Source of the DNA: a candidate division WOR-3 bacterium
GTDB lineage: Bacteria > Hydrothermota > Hydrothermia > LBFQ01
Direction: 5' to 3'
Assembly (NCBI GenBank): GCA_015492295.1
Contig: WGFI01000019.1
Location: forward strand, 1 to 61,457
DNA: 61,457 nucleotides
Shown here: positions 49,550 to 56,385 of the stretch, piece by piece
How the letters are laid out: the number at the start of each line of letters is the position of its first letter
Numbering within the stretch: the first letter of the stretch is position 1
The notes under the pieces: generated by a model
Database searches by the model: none
What the model saw: only the letters and a program-made list of their open reading frames with translations
Told to the model about the DNA's origin: nothing
Program-made: the position numbers and the translations under genes

Positions 49550-50182
49550 ATGGCATTCAGGAAATACGAAGGCGTAGATTGGGAAAAAGCAAACCCAAGC
49601 ATATTTAAGCTTGATGGTATATCTGAAAGGAGCGTGAGGGAGCATATAAAACTTTATAACGGCTATGTCTCCAAGTATAACGAGGTTCAGGAAACCATAG
49701 AGAAACTCAGCAAAGAGGATTTATCCAAGGCGAATCCTACATACAGCCTCATCCGAGCCCTTAAAGTTGATCTGACCCGAGCCATAGGCGGTATAAAGAA
49801 TCACGAGATATACTTCTTCAACCTCGGAGGTAAGGGTGGAAAGCCTTCCGGAGACTTGCTGAAACAGATAGAAAGGGATTTTGGCTCTTATGAGAGATTT
49901 GAGGATGAGCTTAGGGCAACCGCAACCGCCGCAAGAGGTTGGGCTTGGGTGGCATACGATTTTAATTTTGATAGGTTGTTCATAGCGATAGGGGATGAGC
50001 AGAATACATATCCTTTCTGGAACGCCTATGTGATACTCGCCCTTGATGTTTTTGAGCACGCCTTCTTCATGGATTACGGTGCGGCTAAGGGTAAGTACAT
50101 AGACGCATTTTTCAGGAATCTTAACTGGGATGATGTTGCCCAAAGATTTGAAAAGGCGATGAAAATCAAGGAATCCCTGTGA
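49550..50182 (+). CDS. Fe/Mn-family superoxide dismutase
   Basis: 210 aa. Candidate metal ligands are present (REH..., KNHEIYF, DVFEHAFF). Strong SD AAGGAGGTGA. Confidence 0.7.
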   Translation: MAFRKYEGVDWEKANPSIFKLDGISERSVREHIKLYNGYVSKYNEVQETIEKLSKEDLSKANPTYSLIRALKVDLTRAIGGIKNHEIYFFNLGGKGGKPSGDLLKQIERDFGSYERFEDELRATATAARGWAWVAYDFNFDRLFIAIGDEQNTYPFWNAYVILALDVFEHAFFMDYGAAKGKYIDAFFRNLNWDDVAQRFEKAMKIKESL

Positions 50183-50568
50183 TAAGTTGCACGGCCATAA
50201 TTGATACGATTGAAAGTGTAAAACTTCTGGGGGAGTGGGAGATAGTTGAGATCCTACAAAAGGAAGGTTTATTACACTATCCCAAACCTTTGTGCGAAGG
50301 AGGAAGAATTGTGCGAATAAGAAGAACAAAGTACAAATGTCTTCCCTGCGGTAAAGAATTTTCGCCGAAGAAGAACTCCAAACTTGAATCCGTAAGGCTA
50401 CCCTATTGGAAGATACTCGCCGCATACAGACTTTATCTTAATGGTACCCCCACAGACTTTATTTCCCAGGTCCTCAACATATCAAAACCCACGGTGATGA
50501 AGCTTGAAGCTATCTTTAAAAATTTGAACGAAAGATTTTACCCGGAAGCTCCTGTATATAACCCTTGA
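50179..50568 (+). CDS. Stand-alone zinc-ribbon/HTH protein resembling the N-terminal domain of IS1595-type transposases (no DDE domain)
   Basis: 129 aa (...YKCLPCGKEFSPKKNSKLESVRLPYWKILAAYRLYL....ISQVLNISKPTVMKL). GTG start overlapping the sod stop. Confidence 0.4.
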   Translation: MISCTAIIDTIESVKLLGEWEIVEILQKEGLLHYPKPLCEGGRIVRIRRTKYKCLPCGKEFSPKKNSKLESVRLPYWKILAAYRLYLNGTPTDFISQVLNISKPTVMKLEAIFKNLNERFYPEAPVYNP

Positions 50569-51544
50569 TCTGCAAATTGACGAGCAAGGAATAAGCATCA
50601 TCCCCCACCAACTCAACTATCTCGTCCAAATGTTTCTCCTCTTTTAGAATCTCAAGGATATAACTCTCCTTCTCATTTAAATCTGTGGGATGAGATGCGG
50701 TGAAATGCGTGTTATTATCCGAAATATCCTTTAAGAATTCCGATATATCATAGAGTGGTCTCGCCCCTTCATATATAAGCTTGTTAGATCCATAGTTCCT
50801 TGAATCGTAAGGATCTCCAGGGATTACCCATATATCTTTACCTTGATCCAAAGCCCACCTCGCTGTTATCAGAGCCCCAGACTTTGAAGGAGACTGGGAT
50901 ATTACTACCACATCACTGAGAGCACTGATAACCCTATTCCTCGCAGGAAAGTTACCGGGATTCGGTAATGTACCGAGAGGGAATTCAGAAAGTATCAATC
51001 CACCCTTATTCAAAATCTCCCTGAATAAACCCCTGTTTTCCTTTGGATAGGTTTTATCTAAACCGCATCCCATAACTACCACCGTTCTACCGTTAGCCCC
51101 TTTATGCGCAGCAGTATCTATACCTATTGCGCCTCCCGATACAACAACCATCCCATTCTGGGAAAGAGCTTGGGATAATCTGTAAGTGAAATTTGATGCG
51201 GAAACGGATGGATACCTTGTACCAACTATACCCACGGTTTTATTGTTCAGGATGTTAAGATTCCCTTTGTAATAAATGACTTTTGGAAGATAGCTGAAAG
51301 TTTTTAATCTTTCGGGAAATTCTGGATTGAGAAAGGTAATTATGTTGATACCCAGTTTTTTAACCTTGCCAACATACTTTTCAACATGGTCAAGCGAGGG
51401 CATATTTGGATTTATGTGATGGAGATTCTCATAAGCGGATTTAAAAGATCCGAACTCCTTCAAAATCTTCTCTATCCTTACAGGCCCTATTCTATGCGTT
51501 AAATGAAATGATAACAAATAGATCTCCTCTTCCAACAGATGCAT
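50516..51544 (-). CDS. dprA: DNA-processing protein DprA (Smf)
   Basis: 342 aa (GIVGTRYPS, VVSGGAIGIDTAAHKGA, Rossmann-like core). Confidence 0.85.
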   Translation of the reverse strand: MHLLEEEIYLLSFHLTHRIGPVRIEKILKEFGSFKSAYENLHHINPNMPSLDHVEKYVGKVKKLGINIITFLNPEFPERLKTFSYLPKVIYYKGNLNILNNKTVGIVGTRYPSVSASNFTYRLSQALSQNGMVVVSGGAIGIDTAAHKGANGRTVVVMGCGLDKTYPKENRGLFREILNKGGLILSEFPLGTLPNPGNFPARNRVISALSDVVVISQSPSKSGALITARWALDQGKDIWVIPGDPYDSRNYGSNKLIYEGARPLYDISEFLKDISDNNTHFTASHPTDLNEKESYILEILKEEKHLDEIVELVGDDAYSLLVNLQIKGYIQELPGKIFRSNF

Positions 51545-51552
51545 AACAGAAA

Positions 51553-51561
51553 ATTATAACC
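51553..51561 (-). promoter_or_regulatory. Putative -10 element (TTTTCAAGGTTATAAT) for dprA
   Basis: Reverse complement reads GGTTATAAT, then an 8-nt spacer, then the ATG at 51544. Confidence 0.5.
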
Positions 51562-51639
51562 TTGAAAAGGATTTTAATTAAGGTGGGTCGCAGTAAATTA
51601 TTAAGCGATAATACAAATTAGCGGGTTTTTAATGGTTAT

Positions 51640-51830
51640 AATGAAGGGCCTATAAGCAGGGACTGGAGTAGATACAACAGGGAACTTATAAGAAGGGCAA
51701 AATACTCATAAGTCTTGCGGATTTCGGACTGAAGTAAGCCTTTCTCCAACTCATCCCTTTCTTCTCCTTTTGGACAAGGCACTCTGTATCCGTAGAACCC
51801 ACTTATGTAAAAAGTCCCTCCTATCAGCAC
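51640..51830 (+). pseudogene. IS transposase N-terminal fragment (degenerate)
   Basis: Plus-strand frame reads NEGPISRDWSRYNRELIRRAKYS*. The DWSxYNxxLxxRG-type block is typical of the N-termini of IS4/IS5-like transposases. It is followed by stops and frameshifts. Confidence 0.3.
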
Positions 51831-51845
51831 GATACATTCAATTTA
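51822..51845 (+). repeat. 24-nt direct repeat, copy 1 (TATCAGCACGATACATTCAATTTA)
   Basis: Matches 52254-52277 at 22 of 24 positions. Confidence 0.8.
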
Positions 51846-51930
51846 TGGTATTTCGTTGATTAAATGAGACAAAGGACGGGATTAGAATAGAAGCGAGCAA
51901 CAAGATAAGGCTAAAAGTAAGGGGAACGAG

Positions 51931-52185
51931 GTGGTGTGGGTCCTGTACCTATGCAAAGAGTGTGGGAGGCAGATGGTGGAGAGGCCGAAGTATAAGATGA
52001 GTTATTCAGCGATAGCGAGGGTATATATTGGCTTTGATGAGGGTTTAAGCAGGCTTAAAAAGGTTTTCAAGCGGCGAAGACGAAATGGAGAGAGTTTGCA
52101 AAACATAATTGACCTTCTACCTGAAGCGGAGGAATTCCATACGGACGGGTGGAAGGGATATGAAAGAAGACCTCGTCAATCTTAA
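51931..52185 (+). pseudogene. Internally deleted IS1-like transposase remnant
   Basis: 84-aa ORF retaining a CKECG zinc-finger-like start and a ...FHTDGWKGYE end, which resemble the two ends of IS1-type transposases. The middle is missing. Confidence 0.3.
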
Positions 52186-52253
52186 TTAGGGTTTTCACAA
52201 CAGATTGCGGTAGAGAAAAAACTGGCTCTTGGATCATAAGAACCCTATCATTC

Positions 52254-52277
52254 TATCAACACGATACCTTCAATTTA
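52254..52277 (+). repeat. 24-nt direct repeat, copy 2 (TATCAACACGATACCTTCAATTTA)
   Basis: Matches 51822-51845 at 22 of 24 positions. It overlaps the CDGSH gene stop codon. Confidence 0.8.
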
Positions 52278-52481
52278 CTCAGCTTCTACTTCAACCTCCT
52301 CCGCTTGAAATCCCACCTTCGCGTGGGAGCCATCGCAGAAGGGTTTATTATTTGAATGACCACACCTACACAGCGCAAGAACCTTCGCATCCATTTCCTC
52401 TTCTTTGCCACCCTTTATCACTTTTATCTTTCCCTTTATCTCTACTATATATGGACCGTTTTTCAATGCTTTGACTTTCAT
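52275..52481 (-). CDS. CDGSH-type iron-sulfur domain protein
   Basis: The start was set at MKVKALKNGPY (68 aa) on the promoter-motif evidence. It carries the exact signature CRCGHSNNKPFCDGSH. Confidence 0.75.
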   Translation of the reverse strand: MKVKALKNGPYIVEIKGKIKVIKGGKEEEMDAKVLALCRCGHSNNKPFCDGSHAKVGFQAEEVEVEAE

Positions 52482-52490
52482 GGTACGAGT

Positions 52491-52499
52491 ATAATAACC
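52491..52499 (-). promoter_or_regulatory. Putative -10 element (TTTCAAGGTTATTAT) for CDGSH gene
   Basis: Reverse complement reads GGTTATTAT, then a 9-nt spacer, then the ATG at 52481. Confidence 0.45.
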
Positions 52500-52531
52500 T
52501 TGAAAATTATCCGAGGGAAAAATATATGCCA

Positions 52532-53077
52532 CTAAAAGATTTCTTTCAGATCAACTTCAAGACCTTTCAGAATCTTACTCTTAACTTTACCCTCACCACT
52601 CGCTATACTGTAAAGTTCATACTTGCCTTCCTTTAATACCCACACCTCCACTGCTTTTTCACCCGGATACACAAGCCAATACTCTTTAATCCCAGCTTTC
52701 TCGTATATCTTGAACTTCTCATACCTATCTCTGTAATAGCTCGTCGGTGAGACTATCTCAACAACCAAGTCAGGAGGACCGAATAACCTACCTCCCCTTA
52801 TATTCTTTAAGTTCTCCTTGGATATGAACACTATATCAGGCTGAACAACGGTTTCTTCACTCAATATCACATCAAAGGGGGATAGTATGACCTCACCTGA
52901 CCTAAGATTGATTTCTAACAGTGATATTAAAATGTATGTTAGTTTTTTTAATATCTTTTGATGCTCAAAGTGAGGTGCAGGCATTTCATATAACCTCCCT
53001 TTTATAACCTCATACCTTTTATCGTCGTTAAGCTCCAAGTAGTCCCTATAAGTCCAAATCTTCTCCTTAACCTTCAT
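52532..53077 (-). CDS. Uma2 (ex-DUF820) PD-(D/E)xK-fold putative endonuclease, copy 1 (subfamily A)
   Basis: 181 aa (KEKIWTYRDY, LNDDKRYEVIKGRLYEMPAP, QPDIVFISK, PDLVVEIVSP, KAGIKEYWLVYP). SD AAAGGAGG lies 6 nt upstream of the ATG, inside copy 2. Confidence 0.7.
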   Translation of the reverse strand: MKVKEKIWTYRDYLELNDDKRYEVIKGRLYEMPAPHFEHQKILKKLTYILISLLEINLRSGEVILSPFDVILSEETVVQPDIVFISKENLKNIRGGRLFGPPDLVVEIVSPTSYYRDRYEKFKIYEKAGIKEYWLVYPGEKAVEVWVLKEGKYELYSIASGEGKVKSKILKGLEVDLKEIF

Positions 53078-53618
53078 CAAAAACCTCCTTTAAATCAACT
53101 TCAAAGCCTTTCAGAACTTTACTCTTAACCTTACCTTCACTACTCGCTATACTGTAAAGCTCATACTTGTCTTCCTTCAAAACCCACACCTCTATCGCTT
53201 TCTCGCCTGGATACACAAGCCAATACTCTTTAATTCCTGCTTCCTCGTATATCCTAAACTTCTCATATCTGTCCCTATAATAACTCGCAGGTGATACTAC
53301 CTCTACAACTAAATCAGGAGGGCCATAGATACGGTCCTTAATTATCTCCTTCCTATCCTTGGATATAAACACCAGATCAGGTTGAACAATGGAGATTTCG
53401 GATAGGATTATATCCACAGGTGATATAATAACTTCTCCCCAGAAAGGATTAACAAAGTTGTCAAATTTTTTATATAATCTACCTACAATTCTTTGATGAA
53501 ACACAAAAGGCGCGGGCATTTCATATAACCTCCCGTTTATGACCTCATACCTTTTGTCATCGTTGAGTTTTAAGTAATCCTCATAAGTCCAAAGCTTCTC
53601 TTTAGCCGGCGCTTTCAT
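53067..53618 (-). CDS. Uma2-family putative endonuclease, copy 2 (subfamily A)
   Basis: 183 aa from the ATG at 53618 (GGAGG, 6 nt, ATG). The C-terminal 82 aa are about 88% identical to copy 1 by manual count. The central segment is divergent. Confidence 0.7.
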   Translation of the reverse strand: MKAPAKEKLWTYEDYLKLNDDKRYEVINGRLYEMPAPFVFHQRIVGRLYKKFDNFVNPFWGEVIISPVDIILSEISIVQPDLVFISKDRKEIIKDRIYGPPDLVVEVVSPASYYRDRYEKFRIYEEAGIKEYWLVYPGEKAIEVWVLKEDKYELYSIASSEGKVKSKVLKGFEVDLKEVFDEG

Positions 53619-54159
53619 AACCAACCTCCTTCAATAGATCTCTTAACCTGAACTTAACCCCCTCTAAAAGCTCAACCTCCTCATCCTTGCTGAAAAGTTT
53701 AACCCCTTTATCGTCTATAACGATAATCTCTTTGGTCTTCGGATAAATCCAAACCTGCTTGAAAACTCCCCAGGTTTTATAATCCTTAATCTTACCTTGA
53801 ACATATTCGGCGCTGTCAGAAGGTGAAACTATTTCAATAATAAGCTCAGGAGGTATATCAATTGAACCTTCTGGTATATCTCTCATCCTCCCCTTTGATA
53901 TAACCACTATATCTGCACCCCTTAAAATCAAAGGGTCTCGTGAAATGAGCAAGCCTACTTCACCTACGAATATATAAAATTTATCCTTTAACTTACTATA
54001 AAGAAGCCTATAAACTGCTCCCTCCAAAAACCCATGGAATCCACCTACTGGCATTCTTCTGACCTCCTTACCGTTTATGATCTCTGAAACATCGGGAGGT
54101 ATCTTACCAGATATGTAATCCTCATAAGTCCATAGTTTTTCTTTAACCGTTGCTTTCAT
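53602..54159 (-). CDS. Uma2-family putative endonuclease, copy 3 (subfamily B)
   Basis: 185 aa (KEKLWTYEDYISGKIPPDVSEIINGKEV, RGADIVVISK, PPELIIEIVSP). Confidence 0.65.
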   Translation of the reverse strand: MKATVKEKLWTYEDYISGKIPPDVSEIINGKEVRRMPVGGFHGFLEGAVYRLLYSKLKDKFYIFVGEVGLLISRDPLILRGADIVVISKGRMRDIPEGSIDIPPELIIEIVSPSDSAEYVQGKIKDYKTWGVFKQVWIYPKTKEIIVIDDKGVKLFSKDEEVELLEGVKFRLRDLLKEVGYESAG

Positions 54160-54700
54160 AATCTACCTCCTTCAACAAATCCCTTAACCTAAGCTTAACC
54201 CCCTCCAAAAGCTCAACATCCTCATCTTTACTGTACAATTCCATACCTTTGCTGCTTATGACGATAACGACACCATCCTCCGGAAACATCCAAACCTGTC
54301 TATTCACACCCCATCTCCTGTAATCTTCCATCTTCTCCAGAACATATACGACACTTTCTCCCGGAGATACGATTTCAATAACGAGTTCTGGCGGTATGTT
54401 TAAAGCACCCTTGGGTATATCCTTTAACCTTTCCTTGGAAATGACCACTATATCAGCCCCACGAAGATGTAAGGGTTCTTTGGATAAAATCAAAGCCACT
54501 TCCCCTAAGCTGATCCAATATCTATCCCTTAGGTAATTATACAAAATCACAAATATTTTACCTTCAATATTTCCATGAAAAAATCCCGCGGGCATTTTTT
54601 TAACCTCCTTACCGTTTATGATCTCTGAAACATCGGGAGGTATCCTACCAAAGATATAATCTTCATAAGTCCAAATCTTCTCCTTAACTGTTGCCTTCAT
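54143..54700 (-). CDS. Uma2-family putative endonuclease, copy 4 (subfamily B)
   Basis: 185 aa from the ATG at 54700. It has the same blocks as copy 3, and the same GGAGG-bearing junction. Confidence 0.65.
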   Translation of the reverse strand: MKATVKEKIWTYEDYIFGRIPPDVSEIINGKEVKKMPAGFFHGNIEGKIFVILYNYLRDRYWISLGEVALILSKEPLHLRGADIVVISKERLKDIPKGALNIPPELVIEIVSPGESVVYVLEKMEDYRRWGVNRQVWMFPEDGVVIVISSKGMELYSKDEDVELLEGVKLRLRDLLKEVDYESNG

Positions 54701-55235
54701 AACCAACCTCCTTCAGTAGATCACTTAACCTAAACTTAACCCCCTCCAAAAGCTCAACCTCATCATATTCACTAAAAATCTCCGTTTTTTCTGATGTTAA
54801 TATTATTATTTTTTTCGATTTAAGAAATACCCATACCTGACGATTTGTACCCCAACGGCGATAATCTTCCATCTTTTCAAGTATATATACGGCATCTTCG
54901 TCAGTTGAAATTATCTCAACTATTAAATTCGGAGGTTCGTTTATTATCTCATTTTTAAGATTCCATCTGTCCCTGGATATAACAACTATATCCGCTCCTC
55001 GTAAGGTAAATGGATACTTTGAGATCATCAAGGATACTTCTCCAACAAAAATTAGATATTTTCTTCTATCAAGGTGTTTTCTAAGAAGATAAGATATTTC
55101 CATTTCCAACCAAGCAAGCAAATCTCTTGCAGGCATTTTTTTGACCTCCTTACCGTTGATAATATCCGAAACGTCGTGAGGTATTCTACCAGATATGTAA
55201 TCTTCATAGGTCCAGATTTTCTCTTTAACCGTCAT
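54684..55235 (-). CDS. Uma2-family putative endonuclease, copy 5 (subfamily B), first gene of the array
   Basis: 183 aa from MTVKEKIW (ATG 55235), preceded by a GGAGGT SD and a GTTTATAAT box. Confidence 0.65.
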   Translation of the reverse strand: MTVKEKIWTYEDYISGRIPHDVSDIINGKEVKKMPARDLLAWLEMEISYLLRKHLDRRKYLIFVGEVSLMISKYPFTLRGADIVVISRDRWNLKNEIINEPPNLIVEIISTDEDAVYILEKMEDYRRWGTNRQVWVFLKSKKIIILTSEKTEIFSEYDEVELLEGVKFRLSDLLKEVGYEGNS

Positions 55236-55255
55236 AAGGAACCTCCAATACAAAT

Positions 55256-55264
55256 ATTATAAAC
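55256..55264 (-). promoter_or_regulatory. Putative -10 element (TTTCAAGTTTATAAT) for the Uma2 array
   Basis: Reverse complement reads GTTTATAAT. The 20-nt leader contains GGAGGT before the ATG at 55235. Confidence 0.5.
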
Positions 55265-55286
55265 TTGAAAGGTTCGTCATACACGG

Positions 55287-55985
55287 TCATTTTTCTATAT
55301 TTCCTGAAATCCCCAAATTTCCAAGTATAGCTGGTGTGCTTGCTCTGTTAAGACCAGTATCATAAAATCTTTCAATATTTAAAAATCCGTATATTCTTAA
55401 ATCTTCTCCAATATAACCTCTCAGGGTGAATCCTCCGAAAGGATGCAATCCGTACTTTGATATATCTACTTTTATATACGCTACAAAGTATCGCGTGGAT
55501 AAGTTTCCTCCTACCGAAGCTATTAAATTCTTCAAAGAAAATCTATCAATATCGGGATATGCTTTGTCATATCTTATCGGATAGAAATCAACATATATGC
55601 TTATATCATTTAATAGAGTGTAAATCCTTGGCCCTGAGAGAATCAACGTTCTATTTAAAGCATCCACATCGTGCTTACACCTATGGATATATCCTATGCC
55701 GAACTTCTTAAAGTAATAAACTAAACCTTCTGAGAAATATATCCCTCTAGGTCTGAAAAATATGGGACTATACGGATCCGCTATAAATTCCATATGAGCC
55801 ATAAAGCTTAATCCCTTAACGATATTTATCTCACCCCCAAACCTCGCTTGCCACATATGATCCCGATCTCTTAGCAAATAAACCGCAAAGGACATATAAA
55901 ACTTCGCCTTTTTCAATAGACCCGAGTTACCTTGTAAGGGAATCTGATCCCTATCTGGGAATGAAAAGGAGATCACAAAAATCAT
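55287..55985 (-). CDS. Hypothetical beta-strand-rich protein
   Basis: The start was moved to Met13 (ATG 55985) on the promoter-motif evidence. 232 aa, aromatic/Gly-rich with an alternating pattern. No clear signal peptide and no family recognised. Confidence 0.35.
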   Translation of the reverse strand: MIFVISFSFPDRDQIPLQGNSGLLKKAKFYMSFAVYLLRDRDHMWQARFGGEINIVKGLSFMAHMEFIADPYSPIFFRPRGIYFSEGLVYYFKKFGIGYIHRCKHDVDALNRTLILSGPRIYTLLNDISIYVDFYPIRYDKAYPDIDRFSLKNLIASVGGNLSTRYFVAYIKVDISKYGLHPFGGFTLRGYIGEDLRIYGFLNIERFYDTGLNRASTPAILGNLGISGNIEK

Positions 55986-55992
55986 ATCATGT

Positions 55993-56001
55993 ATTTTAAG
56001 G
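55993..56001 (-). promoter_or_regulatory. Putative -10 element (TCAACCTTAAAAT) for hypothetical gene
   Basis: Reverse complement reads CCTTAAAAT, then a 7-nt spacer, then the ATG at 55985. It lies back-to-back with the tRNA-Leu promoter. Confidence 0.45.
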
Positions 56002-56020
56002 TTGATGGTAAAAGTTTCCA

Positions 56021-56029
56021 CTTTAAAAT
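56021..56029 (+). promoter_or_regulatory. Putative -10 element (CTTTAAAAT) for tRNA-Leu
   Basis: CCACTTTAAAAT lies 9 nt upstream of the tRNA-Leu 5' end. Confidence 0.5.
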
Positions 56030-56038
56030 ATCTTCTTC

Positions 56039-56123
56039 GCCGGGGTGGCGGAATTGGCAGACGCAGGGGACTTAAAATCCTCTGGGGTAAATCCCCGTGC
56101 GGGTTCGAGTCCCGCCCCCGGCA
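56039..56123 (+). tRNA. tRNA-Leu (anticodon TAA), class II with long variable arm
   Basis: Folded manually. Acceptor GCCGGGG/CCCCGGC, anticodon stem GGGGA/TCCTC with loop CTTAAAA, variable arm TGGGGTAAATCCCCGT, T arm GCGGG-TTCGAGT-CCCGC. No encoded CCA. Confidence 0.9.
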
Positions 56124-56142
56124 TTTGTTTCACAAACCTCTG

Positions 56143-56385
56143 GTGTTTTATATATTTCTGTTTATACTTGGTTTCATAGCAGGGGAAATGCTAAGTGCCC
56201 TCCTACCCATGGTCCTACCCCGCAGTGGCGCATTGGATGTTATCACATATAAGGTTAGCGTAGGATTGGAAAACATCAGGTTGGATCTGCTGTTTTTGGT
56301 GTTAGGTTTCACCATAAAGTTTAAAATATCCCTACTTGGAATAATCACATCGCTTATATTTGTGGTGATAGGAAGGATGTTATGA
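56143..56385 (+). CDS. Small two-TM membrane protein (DUF4321-like)
   Basis: The ORF-track start at 56002 runs through the tRNA and is rejected. In-frame candidate starts are TTG 56125, GTG 56143 and ATG 56188. The pattern FLFILGFIAGEMLSALLP...ISLLGIITSLIFVVIG resembles the DUF4321 family. Confidence 0.35.
   Translation: MFYIFLFILGFIAGEMLSALLPMVLPRSGALDVITYKVSVGLENIRLDLLFLVLGFTIKFKISLLGIITSLIFVVIGRML

Follow-up and report, generated by a model that had tools for sequence, protein, structure and literature searches.

Five overlapping Uma2 nuclease-fold genes with a discrete, variable helix cassette in a candidate division WOR-3 bacterium

A 61,457-nucleotide stretch of a candidate division WOR-3 bacterium (contig WGFI01000019.1 of assembly GCA_015492295.1, hereafter the window) carries at positions 52532–55235 a head-to-tail array of five complete minus-strand genes, whose products are nuclease-fold paralogues of the Uma2/COG4636 (DUF820) family. 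Variability between the copies is concentrated in a discrete cassette that forms most of the first core helix, alpha1. Cassettes of the same type are nearly invariant in protein sequence across genomes, and the frames around them bear the marks of recombination. We interpret the array as a co-expressed set of nuclease-fold paralogues in which alpha1 sets specificity for a target or a partner, with a conflict-type role as the most likely one, and we give this interpretation a probability of about one in two.

The copies are named c5, c4, c3, c2 and c1 in the order of transcription, and all coordinates are window positions. From c5 to c1 the genes encode 183, 185, 185, 183 and 181 amino acids. 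The genes and the junctions between them are as follows.

54684–55235, minus strand: c5, Uma2 subfamily B, 183 amino acids, first gene of the array (open reading frame and sequence; PF05685, E = 6e-11)
54143–54700, minus strand: c4, Uma2 subfamily B, 185 amino acids (open reading frame; PF05685, E = 1.6e-15)
53602–54159, minus strand: c3, Uma2 subfamily B, 185 amino acids, patch type X (open reading frame; PF05685, E = 8.6e-13)
53067–53618, minus strand: c2, Uma2 subfamily A, 183 amino acids (open reading frame; PF05685, E = 4.4e-35; PADLOC PDC-S03, E = 7.9e-47)
52532–53077, minus strand: c1, Uma2 subfamily A, 181 amino acids, last gene of the array (open reading frame; PF05685, E = 5.5e-37)
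54684–54711, minus strand: c5/c4 junction with a 17-nt overlap; GGAGG 54711–54707, ATG 54700–54698, c5 stop 54686–54684 (sequence and DNA alignment of the units)
54143–54170, minus strand: c4/c3 junction with a 17-nt overlap; GGAGG 54170–54166, ATG 54159–54157, stop 54145–54143 (sequence and DNA alignment of the units)
53602–53629, minus strand: c3/c2 junction, the boundary between subfamilies B and A, with a 17-nt overlap; GGAGG 53629–53625, ATG 53618–53616, stop 53604–53602 (sequence and DNA alignment of the units)
53067–53088, minus strand: c2/c1 junction with an 11-nt overlap; GGAGG 53088–53084, ATG 53077–53075, stop 53069–53067 (sequence and DNA alignment of the units)

Independent gene calls on a contig from a public metagenome-assembled genome (MAG; GCA_027016755.1, JALUSD010000327.1), which is 99.99% identical to the window region with one mismatch in 8353 nt, give exactly the same five genes. 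Successive overlaps measure 17, 17, 17 and 11 nt from c5 to c1, and a GGAGG lies 6 nt before each internal ATG, within the tail codons of the preceding gene (..LKEVGYE.., ..LKEVFDEG). A previous reading of this stretch from its letters alone (the sequence-only reading) had described the same five overlapping genes of 181–185 amino acids and the same junction at every boundary, that between B and A included; its duplication unit of ~555 bp has to be shortened, the measured repeat period being 535–544 nt. Co-transcription and coupled translation of the five genes would be the natural reading of these overlaps.

Each of the five proteins scores above the curated gathering threshold (27 bits) of the Pfam Uma2 model PF05685, with 127.3, 121.1, 48.6, 57.4 and 42.6 bits for c1 to c5, respectively. 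Subfamily A consists of c1 and c2, which are 72% identical and differ at 10 positions in their C-terminal 82 amino acids by our own count on the alignment; subfamily B consists of c3–c5, and identity between A and B is ~30–38%. Every copy has the motif KEK(I/L)WTY(E/R)DY and the D...E(I/V)(V/I)S...K residues. In the alignment of the five copies D80, E106 and K120 are invariant, in the contexts QPDIV or GADIV for the Asp, VEIVS for the Glu and EKF, GKI or EKM for the Lys, and in a set of 107 sequences the invariant residues are E107 and K121, with conservation of at least 90% for D81 and H39. The conserved His, which in all3650 (H43) stands at the start of the first core helix and which some family members lack (Feder and Bujnicki 2005, PMC551604), is kept in c1–c4 and is Leu in c5, a copy that also has EIIST for EIVSP. 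An AlphaFold 2 model of c1, the one copy of the five covered by a structural model, was built on the 107-sequence alignment and has a predicted local distance difference test score of 93.9. It adopts the restriction-endonuclease-like fold with the N-terminal subdomain of 1WDJ, 3OT2 and 6OKH, and strand E104–108 followed by helix H111–128 fits the PD-EXX-K arrangement of Uma2. Foldseek superposes it on 6OKH, 3OT2 and 1WDJ with template modelling scores of 0.93, 0.79 and 0.76, with 9Y1L and 3IJM also matching, and returned nothing significant beyond uncharacterised Uma2 crystal structures; 9Y1L and 6OKH are also the nearest entries in a PDB sequence search with c1. The sequence-only reading had already assigned the copies to Uma2, split them into two subfamilies, listed the shared motifs and counted the ten differences, and it had asked that the catalytic residues align structurally. 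These points hold, with EIIST of c5 as a variant; D, E and K are kept in all copies, and the c1 model superposes on 6OKH. The proteins are putative Mg-dependent nucleases of the PD-(D/E)XK fold and are probably dimeric; in 1WDJ the A–B interface comprises 153 residue pairs (PMC7582526).

Column entropy at residues 41–60 of c1 reaches 2.3–2.7 bits, against 0.4–1.2 bits elsewhere in the protein, among 43 A-type copies of the loci compared and 85 A-type database proteins, and the same segment is the entropy maximum among 22 B-type relatives. In the c1 model this cassette of ~20–22 residues begins immediately after His39-Gln40 and comprises the rest of helix alpha1 (37–57) and the loop to strand 1. 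Its five versions lie at the following positions.

55044–55112, minus strand: alpha1 cassette of c5, residues ~42–64, WLEMEISYLLRKHLDRRKYLIFV (alignments; same patch type in the truncated copy L072:1272–1460)
54506–54572, minus strand: alpha1 cassette of c4, NIEGKIFVILYNYLRDRYWISL (alignments; coordinates carried over from the c3 alignment, the two being of equal length up to the patch)
53965–54031, minus strand: alpha1 cassette of c3, FLEGAVYRLLYSKLKDKFYIFV, type X (DNA alignments, gene positions 129–195)
53439–53492, minus strand: alpha1 cassette of c2, RIVGRLYKKFDNFVNPFW (alignments; entropy profile)
52898–52957, minus strand: alpha1 cassette of c1, residues 41–60, KILKKLTYILISLLEINLRS (entropy profile; secondary structure of the model)

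Cassette identity between copies averages 0.29, compared with 0.67–0.74 for the rest of the protein, and the two are hardly correlated (r = 0.10). Within alpha1, positions 42, 46, 50, 53 and 54 are conserved as hydrophobic residues, which presumably pack on the sheet, and positions 41, 44, 45, 52, 55 and 57–59 are variable and polar. In PD-(D/E)XK enzymes the first core helix commonly contributes an active-site residue (PMC3424549). A separate observation concerns the residues next to the cassette: in A-type copies the tripeptide before the His (c1 residues 36–38; xFE, TPW or xVx) co-varies with the P(F/I/V)D residue at 67–69 and also tracks VVVQPD or YVLQPD, a pattern suggestive of three A sub-classes in which the residues joining alpha1 to strand 1 by contact vary together.

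Divergence in subfamily A is mosaic with one variable patch, and the equivalent patch is the most variable in subfamily B, both as previously proposed. The description of the segment as hypervariable stands for comparisons between paralogues, but not within a patch type, where it is strongly conserved. For the same cassette type in different genomes (L006_5/L007_2 and L003_1/L007_2), nonsynonymous divergence (dN) is 0.02 and synonymous divergence (dS) 0.87, values that rest on 10–14 synonymous sites. Because the protein is near-invariant within a type and synonymous sites have diverged, the patch is under strong purifying selection, and relaxed constraint is ruled out by this within-type dN/dS of ~0.02. 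Purifying selection also acts on the frames (dN/dS 0.05–0.23).

Comparison of copies with near-identical frames reveals the limits of the cassette most clearly. Between c3 and L048_8 frame identity is 0.94 (dN 0.027, dS 0.19), in contrast to a patch identity of 0.28 with saturated synonymous sites; between c4 and L048_9 the values are 0.88 for the frame and 0.42 for the patch. At the DNA level, c3 and P0128/L048_8 are ~89% identical in the first 127 nt and ~95% identical in the last 358 nt, and between these flanks lies a sharply bounded block of 67 columns, which opens directly behind the His-Gly codons, extends to the Gly-Glu-Val codons, is ~42% identical and includes a 3-nt indel (identities counted by hand from the printed alignment). 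Point substitution cannot produce so sharp a block within near-identical frames. P0128, the Y-type partner of c3, is encoded in a second B array of the window's own MAG. In a DNA alignment of four sequences the frames group c3 with L048_8 and P0138 with P0147, whereas the patches, indel included, group c3 with P0138 and L048_8 with P0147. Divergence along the genes is thus non-uniform and the trees of patch and frame conflict, which points to gene conversion, a check for which had been proposed for this array.

Low-dS segments within otherwise diverged pairs are a further sign of frequent recombination: L008_1/2 have a dS of 0.09 in the C-terminal part and 1.28 in the patch, and L010_1/L011_6 have a dS of 0–0.13 in patch and middle and 1.19 in the C-terminal part. 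The window copies themselves differ pairwise by a dS of at least ~0.7–1 in every segment, which rules out a recent duplication. The simplest account of these alignments would be that X and Y copies are old paralogues whose frames were homogenised by gene conversion, or whose cassettes were exchanged, with selection keeping the cassettes distinct. No patch type was repeated within one array (maximum identity 0.52 in 56 pairs), an absence not distinguishable from chance, as ~1.4 such pairs are expected. The two B arrays have their frames in circularly permuted order, one reading c5-type, F1, F2 and the other F1, F2, F3, truncated c5-type.

The truncated copy (L072:1272–1460, in the window's MAG) is a 62-codon, frameshifted c5-type open reading frame with alpha1 type AWLEMKISYLLRK and an intact conserved His. 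It shares a 17-nt coupling overlap with the gene that closes the second B array and is comparable to window positions 55044–55235. It ends in ..LIEENI*, and the same alternative frame exists as a short open reading frame at 55052–55207 of the window.

The nearest relatives are all in hot-spring and hydrothermal MAGs labelled candidate division WOR-3. A search with a hidden Markov model of the five copies indicates that tandem Uma2 arrays are the rule in WOR-3 loci, with 2–6 copies per array and several arrays per genome, and almost all of their junctions are either a 4-nt ATGA overlap or a 17–20-nt overlap preceded by GGAGG. The window's MAG contains at least two more arrays, namely an A array of four full copies and a cut fifth open reading frame at the start of the contig (L049) and the second B array (L072). 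On a longer scaffold from essentially the same organism (L048), a six-copy A array and a three-copy B array are 3.4 kb apart. The A type has 671 close homologues; proteins of the B type number only 34 in a collection of 5.8 billion proteins. Arrays differ in number, order and location between close relatives, and many contigs carry one four-gene array without any change (20 contigs, 13 similar places). This patchy distribution, with varying location and copy number, excludes the fixed core locus that had been named as a possible refutation of a special role. Viral contigs yielded only distant, single-copy Uma2 homologues, and a structure scan of BFVD gave no significant match. Solo B-type Uma2 genes also exist; in two assemblies (L065:620–5657 and L066) such a gene is wedged between large DUF7948 genes (729 and 741 amino acids) on the same strand.

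On the interpretation that we favour, the five paralogues, which share a conserved frame and differ almost only in the alpha1 cassette, would be made together from one coupled transcript. The cassette types are old and held by purifying selection, and recombination from copy to copy and from array to array has homogenised or exchanged the frames around them time and again. With alpha1 as the presumed specificity determinant, each copy may serve another nucleic-acid target, protein partner or trigger, and the array would supply several specificities at once. The proteins would then act as conflict-type nucleases, either defence-like or as a selfish ‘solo toxin’. We favour a role of this type because of the associations of the family elsewhere and because of the maintained diversity of cassettes. 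Makarova, Wolf and Koonin (2009, PMC2701414) listed the family as a ‘likely solo toxin’; PDC-S03 is one of 145 candidates found embedded in bacteriophage exclusion (BREX), defence island system associated with restriction–modification (DISARM) or type I restriction–modification loci (Payne et al., bioRxiv 10.1101/2024.01.29.577857); COG4636 has been counted among the restriction nucleases in Tn7 cargo; and a Uma2 gene lies within type III clusters of clustered regularly interspaced short palindromic repeats (CRISPR) in Microcystis.

Several observations weigh against this interpretation. The local gene neighbourhood lends a conflict-type role no support: this array and five sister arrays are accompanied neither by a defence gene or a methyltransferase nor by an antitoxin-like partner or a mobile element. 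PDC-S03 itself is a candidate whose defence role its authors call untested, and in the literature searched nuclease activity is demonstrated for no Uma2 protein. One copy, c5, is without the conserved His. The variable alpha1 positions 43, 47, 48, 49 and 51 are mostly hydrophobic or aromatic, so that a buried protein–protein interface fits at least as well as a DNA-reading surface, and alpha1 was placed on the c1 model and not onto a dimer or a DNA complex. To the small number of synonymous sites behind the cassette values must be added that the comparison sequences are all MAG or metagenome contigs, in which repeats can be mis-assembled or mis-binned.

A bolder version of the specificity hypothesis, which we consider doubtful, would make alpha1 an exchangeable target-recognition module inside a minimal PD-(D/E)XK nuclease and the arrays multi-specificity batteries of an innate-immune or homing type, with cassettes under balancing selection and reassorted by gene conversion. 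If it is true, a modular alpha1 would be functionally comparable to HsdS domain shuffling, in a single small protein without a methyltransferase. Selfish, self-proliferating nucleases provide an explanation that has some claim to attention, even if we think it improbable. Such enzymes would cut or nick the host genome, stimulate recombination and duplicate into arrays and new sites, and alpha1 diversity would track genomic targets or a homing-like spread of cassettes with no benefit to the host. This would agree with the erratic proliferation of the family without conserved neighbours (PMC551604), with arrays at unrelated housekeeping sites whose number and order differ between close relatives, with the frequent unequal recombination suggested by the permuted frame order of B arrays and the terminal frameshifted copy, and with cassette replacement in near-identical frames, which resembles conversion after a break. 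It is harder to reconcile with cassette types kept under strong purifying selection over a dS of ~0.9, with frames whose dN/dS implies that the proteins were kept functional over the long term, with the four-gene array that is unchanged on 20 contigs, and with viral contigs that gave only distant single copies.

The hydrophobic variable face of alpha1 leads to another, unlikely explanation, in which the helix is an oligomerisation code, the paralogues have one kind of substrate in common (such as branched or damaged DNA, as for Hjc and Hje), and the helix faces block mixed dimers or specify heterodimers. The large A–B interface of 1WDJ, the high conservation of every other protein surface among the paralogues and the apparent translational coupling, which is typical of proteins produced in fixed proportion, are all consistent with it. 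However, such a code offers no reason for many paralogues that differ only in an interface, and the helix starts at the active-site His/Glu and is therefore near the substrate. Array sizes of 2–6 and solo B-type genes argue against any fixed hetero-oligomer, and an obligate one of fixed composition is ruled out by them. Ordinary housekeeping nucleases of repair or recombination, expanded as an adaptation to high temperature, are distinctly improbable: arrays are co-directional among core genes, with dprA adjoining here and uvrA near in L071, the family is also expanded in Thermus (PMC1274311) and the fold is related to Holliday-junction resolvases, but the arrays are patchily distributed and change in copy number and location between close relatives, the B subfamily has only 34 members in the protein collection, and selectively maintained cassette diversity is unexpected for a single conserved repair function. 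Finally, the variable segment could be non-functional, a product of relaxed constraint, of hypermutation of the diversity-generating retroelement type or of metagenome assembly. The patch is short, dS is saturated in most paralogue pairs and all data come from MAGs or metagenomes, yet this explanation is already largely refuted and has a very small residual probability. The within-type dN and dS exclude both relaxed constraint and ongoing hypermutation, the changes affect all base types and include a 3-nt indel instead of being adenine-specific, X and Y types occur in three separate lineages and several independent assemblies, and the window array is reproduced in another assembly with a single mismatch.

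The sequence-only reading had presented the array as the best candidate for an undescribed system. This cannot be upheld, as tandem Uma2 cassettes were described in 2005 (PMC551604) and 2009 and the family is in PADLOC as PDC-S03. Feder and Bujnicki defined the family, predicted its nuclease activity and PD-EXX-K site and noted a massive lineage-specific proliferation; they also reported some tandem duplications, including one four-gene run, proposed a selfish spread and found no adjacent methyltransferase across the family (PMC551604). Fifteen Uma2 paralogues were counted in Thermus by Omelchenko et al. (2005, PMC1274311). The cassettes of cyanobacteria and Thermus (PMC551604, PMC2701414) share with the WOR-3 arrays the family, the fold, PD-EXX-K and His, the proliferation, the tandem arrangement of paralogues and the insertion between unrelated genes, and in neither case is a partner gene conserved. 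By contrast, the arrays described here belong to a thermophilic WOR-3 lineage, in which runs of 2–6 genes are the rule instead of the exception and several occur per genome, and they are distinguished by systematic overlaps, Shine–Dalgarno sequences in the tail of the preceding gene and a lineage-restricted B subfamily. The locus is thus a Uma2 paralogue cassette in a phylum where none had been described before, with unusually regular translational coupling. In the searched literature we found no report of an alpha1 cassette with a recombination mosaic, nor of a function test for Uma2, and nothing relevant on gene conversion in Uma2 genes or on Uma2 in WOR-3.

All five proteins match the PDC-S03 models of PADLOC, with E-values of 1e-44 to 1e-47 for the A copies and 1e-8 to 1e-12 for the B copies. 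PDC-S03 was selected as a gene embedded in BREX, DISARM or type I restriction–modification loci; here there is no such embedding, no defence gene being found near this array or the L048, L049, L069 and L071 arrays, and multi-copy arrays take the place of a single gene. The archaeal Holliday-junction resolvases Hjc and Hje, the fold relatives on which COG4636 was modelled (PMC551604), are likewise small dimeric PD-(D/E)XK enzymes whose first helix contributes to the active site. In Uma2, however, the Lys has migrated to the second helix and an N-terminal subdomain and a C-terminal hairpin are added, and the resolvases are not encoded in multi-paralogue arrays.

Swapping of target-recognition domains in HsdS is a feature of type I restriction–modification, in which conserved frames likewise surround exchangeable, anciently diverged cassettes and recombination between paralogues reassorts specificity. 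The arrays of the WOR-3 lineage may work in a similar way, but they differ in protein, fold and size, have the cassette inside the catalytic domain and lack a methyltransferase, an invertase or recombinase and inverted repeats, and their specificity is a presumed one. Other known systems were considered and set aside. No methyltransferase occurs in the window neighbourhood or beside sister arrays, as a type II restriction–modification system would have it. A type II toxin–antitoxin module is not supported either: the operon has no small antitoxin gene, the successive genes are all Uma2 genes, and the CDGSH gene described below is absent beside other arrays. Differences that affect all base types and include a 3-nt indel, and cassette types that are stable across genomes, are incompatible with a diversity-generating retroelement target; no extra cassette repeat was found within 51400–56200, and no search of the entire window for a reverse transcriptase was made.

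Transcription signals and the nearest neighbours of the array are the following.

55242–55264, minus strand: GTTTATAAT, a −10-like box at 55264–55256, and GGAGG at 55246–55242, upstream of c5 (sequence; putative, not called a promoter by the consensus scan)
55324–55351, minus strand: alternative promoter-like site, TTAACA, 16 nt, TATACT, in the 3′ end of the upstream open reading frame (consensus scan, 10/12 matches)
52275–52481, minus strand: CDGSH iron-sulfur protein gene, 68 amino acids, 50 nt downstream of c1 (PF09360, E = 5e-17; gene call in L001)
52214–52244, minus strand: terminator-like hairpin 52244–52224 and T run, the first such site after the array (terminator scan)
56039–56123, plus strand: tRNA-Leu, 0.8 kb upstream of the array with another open reading frame between

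The single promoter box that had been placed before c5 is present as GTTTATAAT at 55264–55256, but the consensus scan found no acceptable −35 partner for it and instead scored the site at 55351–55324; the number of promoter-like sites in the array region is not above the shuffled expectation of that scan. No terminator-like site was found on the coding strand inside the array. The CDGSH gene lies before the first terminator-like hairpin and probably belongs to the transcription unit of this array; none of the other Uma2 arrays compared has it as a neighbour. The G+C content of the array is 0.35–0.40, compared with 0.39–0.43 in its surroundings.

One flank of the array consists of a lineage-specific open reading frame of 232 amino acids, tRNA-Leu and DUF4321, and the other of the CDGSH gene, DprA, an open reading frame with a weak IS1-like match and superoxide dismutase; SAICAR synthetase, nitroreductases, a rhodanese and riboflavin synthase are encoded further out in the window. 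Sister arrays are co-directional among core genes, between asd-tatC and alaS-spoU-prfA-uvrA, after asnS, or between RNase R and mscS. These housekeeping settings, here and at the sister arrays, do not bear out the expected defence-island context and are in line with the insertion ‘virtually at random’ that was reported earlier for COG4636 genes (PMC551604). Nor is the array in an islet littered with insertion sequences (IS), as had been claimed: the neighbours are housekeeping genes, accompanied by one sub-threshold IS1-like open reading frame and one degraded segment with a 23-nt repeat. The location beside a tRNA gene holds as far as tRNA-Leu is 0.8 kb upstream, but another open reading frame intervenes. 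A tRNA-integrated island is unsupported, the array lying on the 5′ side of tRNA-Leu behind this open reading frame; a duplicated tRNA fragment was not searched for. PADLOC gave no match for the flanking open reading frames (CDGSH, the upstream one, and the small ones at 50182–50568 and 51931–52185).

The IS1-like open reading frame (window 50179–50568, 129 amino acids) runs opposite to dprA, whose end it overlaps, is also a gene call in the public MAG contig, and matches the N-terminal part of the IS1 transposase weakly (22 bits where the cut-off is 100; E = 1e-4). A direct repeat of 23 nt, AATTGAAKGTATCGTGYTGATAG, at 51821–51843 and 52253–52275, of which none is expected by chance, brackets ~430 bp with a degraded open reading frame (51931–52185; motif HTDGWKGY, no family match); this segment, located between dprA and the CDGSH gene, may be what is left of a small mobile element. 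The open reading frame upstream of the array has three homologues only, and at 56–57% identity the neighbourhood is no longer conserved. On a related metagenome scaffold (L062:4494–7435), a 57%-identical orthologue is followed by an XcyI-type restriction enzyme and an N6/N4 methyltransferase, not by Uma2, a faint hint that the site is variable and defence-prone. In a WOR-3 MAG, three tandem pairs of HEPN and MNT nucleotidyltransferase genes (L070:14977–17162) are located ~4 kb from a five-copy Uma2 array, and represent another family in repeated cassettes in this lineage.

Uma2/COG4636, described in 2005, is a large and widely proliferated prokaryotic family, amounting to up to 2% of the genes in some cyanobacteria. 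The WOR-3 lineage provides a natural experiment on this family, in which frames that are ~94% identical in protein sequence carry unrelated alpha1 helices and the same helix types recur in diverged frames. These pairs point to alpha1 as the element most likely to carry specificity and make the question directly testable. If alpha1 does not set specificity, the locus is simply another Uma2 cassette. If it does, these proteins would be nucleases of very small size whose recognition module is compact and can be swapped, and the arrays would show how, within one bacterial gene family, concerted evolution can go together with the maintenance of diversity.

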